Below are positions 1,826 to 6,665 of a stretch of DNA of 25,331 nt, in pieces; position 1 is the first letter of the stretch, and every line of letters starts with the position of its first letter. Both the position numbers and the translations under genes were made by a program. Origin of the DNA: Gemmatimonadota bacterium (GTDB taxonomy: Bacteria; Gemmatimonadota; Gemmatimonadetes; Gemmatimonadales; GWC2-71-9); NCBI GenBank assembly GCA_039586365.1, contig JBDHKN010000068.1, forward strand, positions 2,857 to 28,187, written 5' to 3'. The notes beneath the pieces are model-generated. The model was not told the origin of the DNA. It searched no databases and was given only the letters and a program-made list of their open reading frames with translations.

Positions 1826-2050
1826 TTAGAGATCGGCCCAGCCGAATCCGACCACTTTTATGATTGCCGCTCGGCGGCCCGGTTGGCACCTGACGTGCCA
1901 CGTAACGCTCATAACGCTCGCCATCGAAGATTCAGCCACGAGGTCACGGCCGCACACGGGACAGACCGGACACTCTCCCGGTGTTCTGAGCATCTCACGG
2001 ATCTTCTGGATTTCCTCGGGTGAGAACGGGACGGGAGTGTCGTGTGGCAT
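1826..2050 (-). CDS. Small putative zinc-ribbon protein (74 aa)
   Basis: MPHDTPVPFSPEEIQKIREMLRTPGECPVCPVCGRDL...WHVRCQPGRR; coding-like codon usage; the second CxxC reads CQPG. Confidence 0.55.
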   Translation of the reverse strand: MPHDTPVPFSPEEIQKIREMLRTPGECPVCPVCGRDLVAESSMASVMSVTWHVRCQPGRRAAIIKVVGFGWADL

Positions 2051-2151
2051 GACGGAAAGCTGTGCAGCGGCACCTGTGGTCACAATGGTGCTGCGTCTTG
2101 AGGCGCGAGACAAGCTGCAACTTCAGGAGCCAAACGAACGTATCTAAGTAT

Positions 2152-2248
2152 GGGCTGTAGCGAGTGGGGCGCCCTGCTCTCCGCAGGGTTCTCGCAGGGA
2201 GGGGCGAGCGGGAACCATGCCAATGCCCGGCTCTGCCTGCTGCAGTCC
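2152..2248 (+). ncRNA. Unassigned four-way-junction structured RNA, copy 1
   Basis: 19-bp closing stem 2152-2170/2230-2248 (G-U rich, which favours the + strand) enclosing hairpins CCCTGC/GCAGGG, CTCGC/GCGAG (loop AGGGAGGG) and CGGG/CCCG (loop AACCATGCCAATG); homologous to 3991-4082. Confidence 0.65.
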
Positions 2249-2255
2249 CACTTCA

Positions 2256-2284
2256 GGAGGGGGCCGGTTGGCCGGCCCTTTCTC
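2256..2284 (+). terminator. Intrinsic terminator-like hairpin after RNA copy 1
   Basis: AGGGGGCCGG-TTGG-CCGGCCCTTT then CTCGTT. Confidence 0.55.
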
Positions 2285-2323
2285 GTTGCGTGTTATCAGG
2301 AGCGTCGTCAGGTTCCATGGTTG

Positions 2324-2676
2324 ATGACGGTGATCCGTATCCACGACACGGACGAAGAGCCGATCTACTGCGACCAGTGTCGGAAAGAGCGGAAACGGAC
2401 GCTTGCCCAGTTCGAAGTCGCGGAGATGGTCGTATGCGCTGAGCACGTTCCAGAAGAACCTCTGGATCAGGTCCAGCCAAGGCGAACATTCCCAAGAAGA
2501 AGTCGAAGAAAGTACGCAAGAAGACCAAGCGGCGGAAATCGAAAAAGCAGAAGCTGGAGGAGCACTACCTACAGGATCCGGTCCGCGCTCGTGACCAGGC
2601 ACATCTCAAGGAGATCAAGGAGTCACGAAAAGGCAGGTGTGGCGTTGGTACGGTAACTGGTACGGTTGGGGAGTAG
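2324..2676 (+). pseudogene. Frameshifted small basic protein: CxxC...CxxH Zn finger plus Lys-rich tail
   Basis: MTVIRIHDTDEEPIYCDQCRKE...CAEHVPEEPLDQVQP, after which coding-like codons continue in the -1 frame from ~2479 (KANIPKKKSKKVRKKTKRRKSKKQKLEEHYLQDPVRARDQAHLKEIKES...) to TAG 2674-2676. Confidence 0.5.
2646..2666 (+). repeat. Direct repeat TGGTACGGT x2 (12-bp period); candidate integrase arm-type site
   Basis: TGGTACGGT at 2646-2654 and 2658-2666, ~125 bp before the recQ breakpoint. Confidence 0.45.
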
Positions 2677-2791
2677 CGTCACGCGCGGAACCGCTGAGGC
2701 GGCAACGCAGGCTGTGCTGAAAAGCCACAGAAACCGGGCGGATTGCGCAGGGGCGGTCACAGATCCCCCTCATACCGTGGCCGCAACTTCT

Positions 2792-3129
2792 TGGGGATCG
2801 ACAAGCCGGACGTGCGCTTGGTGGCACACCTTGGTGTCCCGCCCCGTCCGGAGGCCTATTTTCAAGAGGCCGGGCGCGCCGGTCGTGATGGCCTACCGTC
2901 TCGCTGCGAGATGTTGTGGATGCGGGGTGACCTGGCCCTGGCGACGCACATGGTGGCTGTGAATCACGAGGCGATCCATCGCGACTCCGCAGTGCACGCC
3001 GAAGCGAAGCGGCGCGGTCTCGCGACGATGAAGAAATACGTCAGCACACGAAGCTGCCGCCGTCGAGTGCTGCTGGAATACCTGGGTGACCGGTTGGAGC
3101 AATGCTCTGGGTGCGATCGCTGTGGGTAG
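2792..3129 (+). pseudogene. recQ: 3' fragment of RecQ-family helicase (end of motif V, motif VI, Zn-binding domain)
   Basis: GIDKPDVRLVAH...YFQEAGRAGRDG...CRRRVLLEYLG...CSGCDRCG; similarity starts abruptly inside the conserved ATxAFGMGIDK motif; no helicase motifs upstream. Confidence 0.88.
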
Positions 3130-3180
3130 TGTCAGCATTGGCGCGTGCCGCGGCGCCACGAGGCTGAGCAGAATCGGATG

Positions 3181-3348
3181 TTACTGGATCTCCTCGTTGT
3201 CGCGGCGCTCAGCCACCCGTCGATCCTTACCACTGCGACGGTCCACAGCCACCGAGAGCCTCTCCCCGCGGCGCTGTGCGACTCGCCGATCCTGACCCGA
3301 CCCGCGATGAGGTTGAATGCGAGGCTGCGTCTTGCGGTGCTGCTCCAT
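3181..3348 (-). CDS. Small Arg-rich protein with repeated (D/E/Q)RR motifs (55 aa)
   Basis: AGGAGG 9 nt before ATG 3348; MEQHRKTQPRIQPHRGSGQDRRVAQRRGERLSVAVDRRSGKDRRVAERRDNEEIQ. Confidence 0.65.
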   Translation of the reverse strand: MEQHRKTQPRIQPHRGSGQDRRVAQRRGERLSVAVDRRSGKDRRVAERRDNEEIQ

Positions 3349-3407
3349 GATCTCTCGCCTCCTGCGATCTGATCTCGGGATATCTCGCTGCCGCGAATCG
3401 CCTGACA

Positions 3408-3435
3408 ACAGTACAAAGGAACTTCCGGCTGGCAA
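3408..3435 (-). promoter_or_regulatory. Possible sigma70 promoter for the Arg-rich small protein
   Basis: TTGCCA-N16-TACTGT on the minus strand. Confidence 0.25.
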
Positions 3436-3957
3436 AGCAATGCACGTTCAACCGTGCAGTTGCTCAGTTTGGCCGTCAGGGCCCGACCGGTTTCAGACAC
3501 CCGGTCTGAAGGGAAACCTGCAGTCGCCTTGATCTGCTGTGCGTGCCACAGGCGCCGTCGCTCATGGGCGGCCCCGATAGCGAAGATTGCACCCAATTTC
3601 AGCTGAAGCAATGCCGCCGCTGGCGAGCGCACCTTCACACCTGCCAGATTCAGTTCACTAGCTATCCCCAGACACCCTTCCCATTCCTCCCCTGTTGCCT
3701 GTAACTCCCGGAGCAGGTCTGCAGCGTCGTGGTTTGCCGCGGGGGGCGAGTCGAGCTACCAGGGGCTCCATCGCGCGTATGAACCAGTGCGAGGGCCAGC
3801 CGAGACGGAAGGGACCAAGGGCCACAAGCCCGCCCAGGGCATCCGTCCCCAAAAGTGAACACTAATTTCCCGCCAACAGGCATTTTGCGGCCGGGAGAGA
3901 TCCAGTGTAGTTACGATATGTTGCTGATAGACAACGAGTTACCGGAGTGAAAGCCGG

Positions 3958-3973
3958 TGGCACGGATCTTCCT
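3958..3973 (+). promoter_or_regulatory. Sigma54-like -24/-12 promoter
   Basis: TGGCACG-GATC-TTCCT vs consensus TGGCACG-N4-TTGCW (one mismatch, in the conserved -12 GC); predicted +1 ~3984, just before RNA copy 2. Confidence 0.45.
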
Positions 3974-3990
3974 AATATGAGAAAAAAATA

Positions 3991-4089
3991 CTGCGGTGTG
4001 TCGAACATCTTGCTGCCCAGCAAGCTAACTCGTCGGGAGGGGACGAGCGGGACCACGCCTAGCCCGGTTCAACACACCGCAGGTTTTTT
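3991..4089 (+). ncRNA. Unassigned four-way-junction structured RNA, copy 2
   Basis: Closing stem 3991-4006/4067-4082 (15/16 paired) followed by TTTTTT; hairpins CTTGCT/AGCAAG, CTCGTC/GACGAG (loop GGGAGGG) and CGGG/CCCG (loop ACCACGCCTAG). Confidence 0.7.
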
Positions 4090-4279
4090 GTGTTCGTGTT
4101 ACAAAGATTGCGAGCCACCGCGAGTCCGGCAATAGCAATATGCAATACCAAGTTAACTATGTCCGGCCGGATGTTACTTGCTGCGGCTCCGGTCGACAGC
4201 GTTGCCGCCCTCCTCTCCACCAGCCCCACAAACTCTTATCTTACTATTCATACCCAGATCTCCTGTACCTGGAGGGACC

Positions 4280-5644
4280 GTGATTCGAAGGTCTTCACTC
4301 CTTGCTCTCGCCGTGTTGGCTGTTCCGATGGTTATCACGCCGGCACAAGAGGCCTCTGGGCAACGAGCCATGGTGAGTAGCTCACCCGTCTATCGCATAA
4401 CTGTGACGGGAACGATTGAACTGGGCCTGGCACCCTACGTACGCAGGGCAGTCCGTGAAGCCAATGATGTCGGTGCGCTCGCTATCGTATTGGATATCGA
4501 CACCTTTGGTGGTCGGGTGGATGCGGCTCAGCAAATCGTCACGGCTGTTGGGGAGAGCGAAATCCCAGTCTACGCCTTCGTGCGTCACAACGCCTGGAGT
4601 GCTGGTGCGATGATTGCGCTCGCGGCCGATTCGATCTTCATGACGCCCGGGTCCTCCATTGGAGCTGCCACGCCTGTGGGAGGTGCCGGGGAGAAGCAAC
4701 CGGAGAAGATCGTGAGTGCAATGCGTGCTGAGTTTCGCGCACTCGCGGAGCGGCGTGGGCTCGATCCTCGGGTTGCCGAGTCGATGGTAGACGAATCGAT
4801 TGAGATCGAGGGTGTTATTGAGGCAGGGAAACTGCTCACTCTAACCGGTCGCGAGGCCATCGAGTTGGGAGTCGCCGCTGGTGAGGTGGACGATCTGGAC
4901 GCCCTGCTGGCGCTGCTGAACTTGGACGGGGCCGGGCTCGAGACTGTATCGGTGAACTGGGCCGAGGGATTGGTGCGGTTCCTGTCGAATCCCATCGTCG
5001 CACCTATTCTCCTTTCCATCGGGACACTGGGAATCATCATCGAGATAAAGACGCCATCGTTTGGGCTCGCCGGTTTGACCGGTCTCGTCGCTCTGGGGGC
5101 ATTCTTCGGAAGTCACCTCATCGTCGGCCTGGCCGGGATGGAAGAGATCATCCTGCTTGGTGCGGGACTGATCGCGTTGGGAATCGAGGTGTTTATTGTT
5201 CCTGGGTTCGGCATTGCCGGCGTAGTCTCGATTGTGTGTATCACAACCGCGACTTTCATGGCCTTGATCGGCGCCTTGCCCACATGGTCTGAGGTGGCTC
5301 GAGCTAGCGGTATCATGATCGTGGCTGCTGGGATCGTGGCCGGTGCCGTGTTCGCTATTGTTAAGAACCTGCCTACCAGCGGCAGGTGGCGCGGCATCTT
5401 CCTCAGGGACACGACCGATCGGGCGGCGGGCTATATCGCGGAACCGGTCCGTGAGGATCTCATTGAGGTCGAGGGAATCGCAGTCACGGACCTGAGGCCT
5501 TCCGGAACGGCAAGGTTTGGGGACGAACGTCTGGATGTCGTGTCCGACACAGGATATGTGTCCAAGGGCACGCGCGTTCGGGTAATACGATCCGAGGGAT
5601 ACCGCCATGTAGTCGAGCCGGTGGAAGGGGAACCGGTGGAGTGA
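4280..5644 (+). CDS. nfeD: NfeD-family membrane-bound serine protease (YqeZ-like)
   Basis: GGAGG before GTG 4280; signal peptide; ClpP-like domain (DTFGG, AWSAGA, IGAA, EK), GKLLTLT, TM bundle, C-terminal OB fold (TDLRPSG). Confidence 0.92.
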
Positions 5645-5669: not shown

Positions 5670-6665
5670 ATGGAAGGACTGATCGAAGTAGCCCCGTGGC
5701 TCCTACCTGTGCTGCTTCTACTCGGCGTGATCCTGGTCGCGTCGCTGTTCTCCTTCGTTCCCATGCGTCTGTGGATCGAAGCATGGTTCTCCGGTGTGCG
5801 TATTGGACTTGGCAGCCTGGTGGGCATGCGGCTCAGGAAAGTGAGCCCGCCGGCGGTAATCCGGCCGCTCATCGCGGCGACCAAGGCAGGACTGGCACTC
5901 CGCACCAATGAACTGGAGGCCCACTACTTGGCTGGCGGAAGCGTCGATCGCGTGGTTCGCGCACTGATCTCAGCGGACAAGGCGGGCATCGAACTTCCAT
6001 TCCAGAAGGCCGCGGCCATAGACCTCGCGGGTCGTGACGTACACGAGGCGGTACAGGTGTCGGTGAACCCCAAGGTGATCCAGACACCTAAAGTGGCTGC
6101 GATGGCGAAAGACGGCATTCAGTTGATAGCCCTGGCCAGGGTGACGGTACGGGCCAATATCAGTCGGCTCGTCGGGGGTGCCGGTGAAGAAACAATCTTG
6201 GCCAGAGTGGGTGAGGGTATCGTGTCCACGATCGGATCGTCCGAGTCACACAAGGCGGTGTTGGAGAATCCCGACAACATTTCCAAGACCGTTCTCGCAA
6301 AAGGGCTCGACAGCGGCACCGCCTACGAGATCCTCTCGATCGACATCGCCGACGTTGACGTGGGCAAGAACATAGGTGCGGAGCTTCAGACCGATCAGGC
6401 GGAAGCCGACAAACGTGTAGCGCAAGCTCAGGCCGAGAAACGACGCGCCATGGCGGTGGCGGCCGAGCAGGAGATGTTGGCGAGGGTACAGGAGATGCGC
6501 GCGCGGGTGGTAGAGGCAGAGGCTCAGGTACCGCTCGCTATCTCTGAGGCGTTCCGCGAGGGGAACCTCGGGGTAATGGATTACGTTCGCTATCGCAACG
6601 TCGAGAGCGATACCGCCATGCGACGGAGTATTGCCGGCGGTGAAGAGCCAAAGGAAGAGAGCTAG
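5670..6665 (+). CDS. floA: Flotillin-like protein FloA (YqfA family)
   Basis: [66 protein letters not shown]; directly follows nfeD. Confidence 0.95.

Follow-up and report, generated by a model that had tools for sequence, protein, structure and literature searches.

Two stretches of a Gemmatimonadota genome, both lying in a 25,331-nt piece of contig JBDHKN010000068.1 (assembly GCA_039586365.1; the whole of this piece is called the window), fold into the same four-way junction while their sequences differ, which raises the question of what kind of RNA they encode and how it might act. An initial annotation, made from the letters alone, had proposed that the two, here copy A and copy B, belong to a functional but unassigned non-coding RNA family. 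Our analysis supports this proposal: no Rfam model matches, the stems P1 and P2 covary, and strand bias, synteny and promoter motifs at a fixed distance are all observed. The two stretches are paralogues of a family of ~100-nt elements that occurs in up to six copies per genome. The reading that we favour, tentatively and with its chances set a little below even, is that these are stand-alone RNA genes with their own alternative-sigma promoters, whose four-way junction product would act in trans by binding, and so titrating, a protein.

The fold consists of a long closing stem (P1) that encloses three hairpins (P2, P3 and P4). The coordinates and stem counts given at first were right, with 18/19 positions of P1 paired in copy A and 15/16 in copy B, and so were the compensatory changes reported for the first two hairpins and the two loop motifs, GGGAGGG and ACCAYGCC. 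The four-way junction is the minimum-energy fold of the + strand in copies A and B alike, which are 64% identical. Copy B is very stable for its composition (z -4.71, with 0/200 shuffles as stable) and most of its helix pairs have p>0.9. The fold of copy A is marginal by itself (z -1.89, 8/200 shuffles as stable; upper P1 pairs at p~0.3) and its centroid differs, so that it rests on homology; copy A scores 64 bits (E 9e-13) against covariance model R2, the training set of which included copy A. Each copy was also said to be followed by a terminator-like element, and such elements are present, as a run of six U in copy B and a hairpin with a short U run behind copy A, although a terminator scanner called neither of them.

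How widely the RNA occurs was determined by pattern and covariance searches. Five copies, and not only the two first noticed, are present in the source genome (5.44 Mb, 86% complete): a pair in the window and one each on contigs C92, C49 and C3. A sixth weak match, on contig C72, was disregarded. An exact pattern scan of GTDB contigs gave 51 loci, of which 39 were titled Gemmatimonadota, 1 Myxococcota and 11 others. The covariance model scored all 39 Gemmatimonadota loci and the one titled Myxococcota, which is probably mis-binned because it shares the Gemmatimonadota gene context; the 11 remaining matches had no covariance-model score and were dropped. A pattern made of the P3 loop, the 3′ strand of P3 and the start of P4 found 50 metagenome loci, and 50/50 scored at E<=1e-5; as this pattern holds no letters of P1 or P2, it is a largely independent test of these two stems. 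Within the taxonomic family, R2 matched 39/150 genomes in a genus-coherent pattern with 1-6 matches per genome, two of the 39 being weak (G255 and G258; E ~2e-4). Outside it the RNA is rarely found: model R1 matched 2/78 genomes, one of them unconvincingly, and R2 matched 2/120, one being a weak match in an unpublished genome that was not used. Since these genome scans scored only 26 candidates per genome, a genome in which the RNA was not found is not equivalent to one that lacks it. Viral contigs and phage records gave no match to the RNA, and plasmids gave a single 26-nt match at chance level.

Covariation was looked for in alignments of these relatives; the alignments had been fitted to the model and are biased in its favour. 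In 58 rows, 96% of cells pair as against 88% in shuffles. In 84 distinct rows, where the structure included three pseudoknot pairs under test, 93% pair as against 83%; 0/500 shuffles equalled this value and slid controls reached 35-50%. By tree parsimony, 13/15 P1 pairs showed at least 3 compensatory events (up to 7) and a P2 pair up to 6, and only 71/5076 other column pairs reach 3, so that P1 and P2 covary strongly. A contact between the loops of P2 and P3, suggested by the initial annotation, is compatible with the alignment and gains no support from it: two of its base pairs can form in 83 and 81 of 84 rows with 0 two-sided changes, and the third is broken in 44/84. The loops themselves hardly vary; among the 83 rows of alignment A5, the only one used for these counts, GAGGG closes loop 3 in 82 and ACCA opens loop 4 in 72. 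Among wobble pairs, 134 are G-U and 46 are A-C (p 4e-11), an excess that fixes the + strand and favours selection at the RNA level.

The strand bias bears on another explanation, namely that the element is a selfish or structural DNA repeat such as a repetitive extragenic palindrome (REP), a miniature inverted-repeat transposable element (MITE), a bidirectional terminator or a transposon end. P1 is indeed a long inverted repeat and either strand can fold, two copies of the type of copy A lie near an integrase gene, and extra paralogues sit in variable regions. The family nevertheless lacks the high copy number, target-site duplication and strand symmetry of such repeats: a genome has only 1-6 copies, 6-mer direct repeats flank 3/121 loci as against 2 in controls, the G-U excess belongs to one strand, synteny extends across genera with promoter motifs at a fixed distance, and viral contigs, phages and plasmids gave nothing beyond the one chance-level plasmid match. 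We give this explanation very little chance of being right.

We next considered the genes around the RNA, using 121 distinct loci that were first classed by neighbouring genes and then tested for motifs. The pool was made up of alignment A3 and of alignment A6, from which the 78 best of 84 rows were taken and the six weakest left out; duplicates were merged. At 32/121 loci (type I) the RNA occupies the position between recQ and nfeD-floA, as copy B does; 23/121 form a convergent class, 13 facing argH and 10 facing the PBP1A gene; 6/121 have an efflux adaptor gene on one side and an ABC ATPase gene on the other; and 60/121 are mixed. As side observations, RNA copies occur in close pairs at L125:347-708, L101:349-800 and L214, arranged in tandem, convergently, or on the two sides of a BTAD/TPR gene at a distance of 3.6 kb.

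The type I and efflux loci, together with an invariant, aptamer-like core and leaky U tails, would suit a cis-acting leader (an attenuator or riboswitch) of nfeD-floA and of the other downstream genes. This account is very unlikely. The convergent loci have only a convergent gene downstream, the contexts are otherwise mixed, and no enriched downstream complement able to form an antiterminator was seen. In addition, nfeD retains the hexamer TANCTT with or without the RNA (26/28 RNA-bearing nfeD loci, 2.1 expected; 11/17 other nfeD loci, 0.9 expected), and floA occurs in 51/111 genomes without an RNA match as well as in 33/39 RNA-bearing ones. Twenty further nfeD loci were then compared. In two of them (L265 and L268) recQ directly abuts nfeD, without the RNA and without a sigma54-like motif; such a motif, sought up to 400 nt from where nfeD is estimated to start, was found in 0/20, three of which had late-starting alignments and one an N gap, and no RNA match reached E<0.2 in the 19 of these loci that were searched for it. 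The joint absence of RNA and sigma54-like motif at nfeD fits a stand-alone RNA gene better than a riboswitch, and with TANCTT kept in either case, promoter and RNA behave like one cassette beside nfeD rather than like a leader of it.

The promoter motifs differ between the classes. Using the -24/-12 sequence that we take to be the sigma54 consensus, a sigma54-like motif was found before 31/32 type I copies and in 0/96 control windows, with a -12 element of TTCC at 19 loci, TTTC at 9 and TTGC at 3; RpoN is present in the source genome. A match to the integration host factor (IHF) consensus, as we assumed it and with up to 2 mismatches allowed, accompanied 27/32 type I loci and 8/96 controls. 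All 23 convergent copies are preceded by GAAAC-N16-18-CGT(A/T), which occurred in 0/69 controls, and 18/23 have a second motif, GCAAC-N17-C(G/A)T(C/A). The motif of the type found at copy A ends 13-15 nt before the modelled start of P1 in 7 loci. Over the whole pool, an alternative-sigma motif lies within 70 nt at 72/121 loci, while control windows gave 0/353 sigma54-like and 1/353 extracytoplasmic function (ECF)-like motifs; TGAAAC-N17-CGTA occurs 35 times genome-wide, against 3-13 times at other spacings. In PMC5758882 the ECF consensus is given as AAC at -35 and CGT at -10, with TGAAAC/CGTA for sigmaW, and the ECF-like motifs of the convergent class and of copy A agree with it. Homologous non-coding copies that each have a promoter of their own are what is expected of sibling small RNAs, the promoters here being predictions at the level of motifs. 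The features of the window are collected in Table 1.

Table 1. Positions in the window of the two RNA copies, their predicted promoter elements and the neighbouring genes.
Feature	Position	Strand	Remarks
Zinc-ribbon gene	1826-2050	-	74 aa with CxxC...CxxC; divergently oriented to copy A; candidate partner of the RNA
ECF-sigma-like motif of copy A	2116-2142	+	TGCAAC-N17-CGTA; predicted start about 2149-2152
Copy A	2152-2248	+	P1 2152-2170/2230-2248; P2 2172-2177/2183-2188
Copy A, P3	2191-2195/2204-2208	+	loop AGGGAGGG
Copy A, P4	2209-2212/2226-2229	+	loop AACCAUGCCAAUG
Copy A, 3′ hairpin	2256-2283	+	GC-rich, short U run; possible terminator, fold-based
recQ 3′ remnant	2791-3129	+	last ~112 codons; edge of variable region; Pfam RecQ_Zn_bind
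IHF-like A+T-rich boxes	3908-3941		5′ of the sigma54-like motif of copy B
sigma54-like -24/-12 motif of copy B	3958-3972	+	TGGCAC-N5-TTCC; predicted start about 3984
Copy B	3984-4089	+	A-rich leader; P1 3991-4006/4067-4082; U6 4084-4089
Copy B, P2	4009-4014/4019-4024	+	loop GCCC
Copy B, P3	4029-4034/4042-4047	+	loop GGGAGGG
Copy B, P4	4048-4051/4063-4066	+	loop ACCACGCCUAG
TANCTT hexamer	4237-4242	+	3′ of copy B; possible -10 of nfeD's own promoter
nfeD (NfeD1b)	4280-5644	+	Pfam; start inferred from Shine-Dalgarno sequence and GTG; conserved neighbour
floA	5670-6665	+	Pfam and NCBIfam; conserved neighbour

From these observations we infer transcription, the sigma factor of each class, the binding of a protein and the identity of a partner, and the following mechanism is proposed in that sense. 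Copy B would be switched on by sigma54 with IHF, and copy A and the copies facing argH or the PBP1A gene by an ECF-type sigma factor; as each paralogue would be under a different stress sigma factor, several signals would be fed into one RNA pool. P1 and P2 would serve as a scaffold of freely variable sequence, the near-invariant P3-P4 face (CUCG..GAGGGGACGAG-CGGGACCACGC..GCCCG) would be the binding surface, and the sibling RNAs would titrate the protein in trans. Action in trans is favoured by the 23/121 loci that face only a convergent argH or PBP1A gene, and a protein surface rather than a pairing seed by the P3 and P4 stems, which are fixed in sequence, by the lack of enrichment of complements of the core and by the failure to find Hfq or ProQ in the source genome. 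The combination of a scaffold of free sequence, a fixed two-helix face and different sigma motifs is best fitted by protein titration.

The near-invariant loops might instead serve for base pairing, in which case the copies would be chaperone-independent sibling small RNAs whose G-rich P3 loop or ACCACGC loop pairs with C-rich targets or sponges C-rich small RNAs. There are precedents for multi-copy small RNAs that use loop seeds and are controlled by stress sigma factors (LhrC, CcsR/cuckoo and the csRNAs), and base pairing is an alternative that we take seriously while judging it unlikely. Against it, the stems vary no more than the loops do, and complements of the core were enriched neither in the flanks of the loci nor genome-wide in the source genome, where 11-mers gave 115 matches against 150 in the control. 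A single 16-nt exact match to the core was noted, on contig C84 (355-370) of the source genome, just upstream of a divergent gene; it does not fold as a copy, and could be a remnant, a target or chance.

The same loop gives rise to another explanation, by which the RNA would bind the ribosome under stress, its GGAGG loop mimicking a Shine-Dalgarno sequence and docking on the 3′ end of 16S rRNA. Most P3 loops carry GGAGGG, and a start codon follows the motif in only 5/83 rows, which means that the loop is not the ribosome site of a small open reading frame; a small reading frame behind it was rejected on the same count. However, the loop is never improved to GGAGGU, ~12/83 loops are without GGAGG, and diverged copies read GGAAGG or CAAGGG, and we consider docking on the ribosome improbable. 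A compact junction with an invariant core could also belong to a catalytic or small-molecule-binding RNA acting in trans; no Rfam ribozyme or riboswitch matches it, however, and its own promoter and gene context give no substrate logic, which makes this possibility highly doubtful.

Several points weigh against protein titration by stand-alone RNA genes. The 121 loci are related by descent, and their counts overstate independence; at 49/121 a recognised promoter motif is missing. The -12 element is mostly non-canonical (TTCC or TTTC at 28/31 loci as against TTGC) and the motif is not enriched genome-wide; the deviation could reflect an altered specificity of RpoN. P3 and P4 are near-invariant, with 0-2 compensatory events per pair; covariation therefore says little about these two helices, which rest on energy and compatibility. 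A run of at least 5 U in 12 nt is present at 60/121 loci and the tails are weak in about half, so that transcription could run on into nfeD. An uninterrupted G-rich stretch that does not vary would be suitable for base pairing as well, and the target search used exact 11-13-mers in one genome and is weak. Finally, CsrA, Hfq, ProQ, TROVE (Ro60) and 6S RNA were not found in the source genome, where the signal recognition particle (SRP) RNA was found, and as the assembly is 86% complete the missing chaperones may simply be unassembled.

If a protein is titrated, the best candidate partner is the zinc-ribbon protein encoded beside copy A, and even for this candidate a partnership is improbable. 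Genes of this zinc-ribbon family occur in 37/39 RNA-bearing genomes and in 15/111 others (14/110 without the unpublished genome G204); floA tracks the RNA less tightly. The source genome has 16-18 paralogues (in the window and on C3, C10, C21, C59, C82, C94 and C130) and the four genomes of genus g1 that were scored have 16-23. A zinc ribbon lies within 1 kb of 7/121 RNA loci, in three orientations, including 2/5 copies of the source genome. Several of the genes share an upstream motif, ATTGTG(A/G)C...GCAG(C/T)TTTC, and some adjoin a second floA paralogue (contig C94 of the source genome, G173, G225, G237 and G006). Family scans assigned the protein to no named family and gave only a sub-threshold match to the Rad50 hook. 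Its predicted structure is a helix with three strands (pLDDT 83), and a fold search yielded nothing at E<=0.001, with the zinc ribbons of Pol I and NrdR at the top of its list. A search of 1.84 billion representatives returned 269 homologues, and a receiver domain of the response-regulator type is present in 12 of 27 longer ones that were scanned. No RNA match was obtained in a complete genome with 10 zinc-ribbon members, and five zinc-positive, RNA-negative genomes gave no credible match when searched more deeply, which indicates that the protein can do without the RNA. Common descent and variable regions that both have in common could account for their association. The correlation between the copy numbers of the two (rho 0.62) was not used as support because both track genome size (0.64 and 0.68). 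It is conceivable, though again with a low probability, that RNA and zinc-ribbon domain form a new RNA-protein regulatory system, parallel in logic to Csr/Rsm or ANTAR without being related to either. In it the zinc ribbon, by itself or built into a response regulator as its output domain, would bind the P3-P4 face and the sibling sigma54- and ECF-driven RNAs would titrate it, integrating envelope stress around the NfeD-FloA membrane system.

Copy A differs from copy B in its surroundings. When the window was compared by tblastn with the RecQ of an intact relative, only residues 350-461 were covered; the N-terminal part was not found in the assembly of the source genome, nor was an intact recQ of this type. 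A variable region has thus replaced the 5′ three quarters of recQ, and as recQ is reduced to its C-terminal end, copy A lies in that region. The initial annotation had suggested that an apparent island might carry a paralogue or a mimic of a host RNA. The paralogue stands, in a variable region, and the mimic is not supported: in a cluster with a support of 0.97, copy A is joined by four copies of 79-82% identity that come from G003, G006 and G228, and three more copies exist in the source genome. The motif GCAAC-N17-CGT(A/C) is present in 4/5 members of this group, whose neighbouring genes differ. Copy A is therefore a member of an established paralogue subfamily that moves with its promoter. 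A near-identical locus of RNA and integrase was seen in genomes of two genera (L187 in G228 and L194 in G003), which points either to a recent transfer or to contamination of a bin. In the interval from copy A to the recQ remnant, a low-complexity stretch rich in Lys and Glu (KKKSKKVRKKTKRRKSKK in one frame; 2473-2560) had no homologue among the fetched loci. Positions 6-1127 of the window and L016:958-2211 hold two tandem secreted peptidase-like genes whose C-terminal domain is 76% identical; the second has a weak Nal1_C match, and an N gap lies just before the start of the window.

No previous description of the RNA was found. The covariance models of Rfam 15 gave 0 matches in the window at the gathering threshold, in line with the earlier failure to recognise a tRNA, SRP RNA, 6S RNA, tmRNA or riboswitch. 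At E<=10 the sole model to overlap the RNA was that of a 25-nt hairpin (20.9 bits against a cut-off of 32), and no match overlapped it in 12 diverse homologous loci. The literature, as far as search listings and the openings of abstracts go, yielded neither this RNA nor a lineage-specific regulatory RNA of Gemmatimonadota. A term search of the accessible part of bioRxiv 10.64898/2026.10.21.760802 gave 0 matches, and its cluster database or supplements may hold the family; Gemmatimonas occurs 0 times in the portion seen of PMC11109978 and Gemmatimonadetes 0 times in that of PMC5737381, the supplements of which bear on novelty.

Comparison with known systems places the RNA as follows. Its long closing stem and three-hairpin head recall YrlA Y RNA and other tRNA-like RNAs, and its P4 stem CGGG/CCCG resembles a T stem. 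Unlike these, it has no T-loop, D-loop GG or Ro-binding bulge motif; P1 carries no conserved bulge or motif, ARAGORN found 0 tRNA or tmRNA genes, and the loop inventories hold no tRNA features (T-loop, 7-nt anticodon loop with U33, acceptor stem with NCCA end). The C4 antisense and P4 CI RNAs are also cloverleaves of a closing stem and three hairpins; the present RNA is chromosomal and syntenic instead of phage-borne, without an Rfam match, loop-complementary flanking sites or phage context. The ~180-nt rod with a central bubble that defines 6S RNA is a different fold, and the Rfam 6S model found nothing in the 86% complete source genome. ANTAR response regulators, with a receiver-fused RNA-binding output domain, would be a parallel only if the zinc ribbon binds RNA; ANTAR targets cis antiterminators, and the domain here is an unrelated zinc ribbon with putative RNA binding.

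Further parallels are regulatory small RNAs with several siblings. Like Qrr1-5, LhrC, CcsR/cuckoo and Pxr, the family is multi-copy, about 100 nt long, with alternative-sigma promoter motifs and conserved loops; it differs in the different sigma classes among its siblings, a loop that is G-rich and not C-rich, invariant stems, Hfq not found in the source genome and the lack of an Rfam match. With the CsrB/RsmX-Y-Z and CrcZ/CrcY decoys, of which CrcZ is sigma54-driven, it shares several paralogues with regulated promoters of their own, purine-rich loops and predicted titration. Those decoys have repeated GGA hairpins, whereas here one G-rich loop stands in a compact four-way junction; repeated ANGGA loops are absent, the AGGGAG form occurs in 4/84 rows, and CsrA does not follow the RNA (4/39 RNA-bearing genomes against 16/111 others, p 0.6). 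A duplicated structured RNA behind different stress-sigma motifs points to a post-transcriptional hub that would run on parts other than the known ones, none of Hfq, ProQ, CsrA, Ro60 and 6S RNA having been found in the source genome. The alignment, the promoters and the candidate partner make the RNA directly testable, and the TTCC/TTTC -12 element is a testable oddity in itself. Set beside these systems, it is a real family of structured RNAs, apparently undescribed, that belongs to a general kind already known, the sibling small RNAs, and has a new fold.

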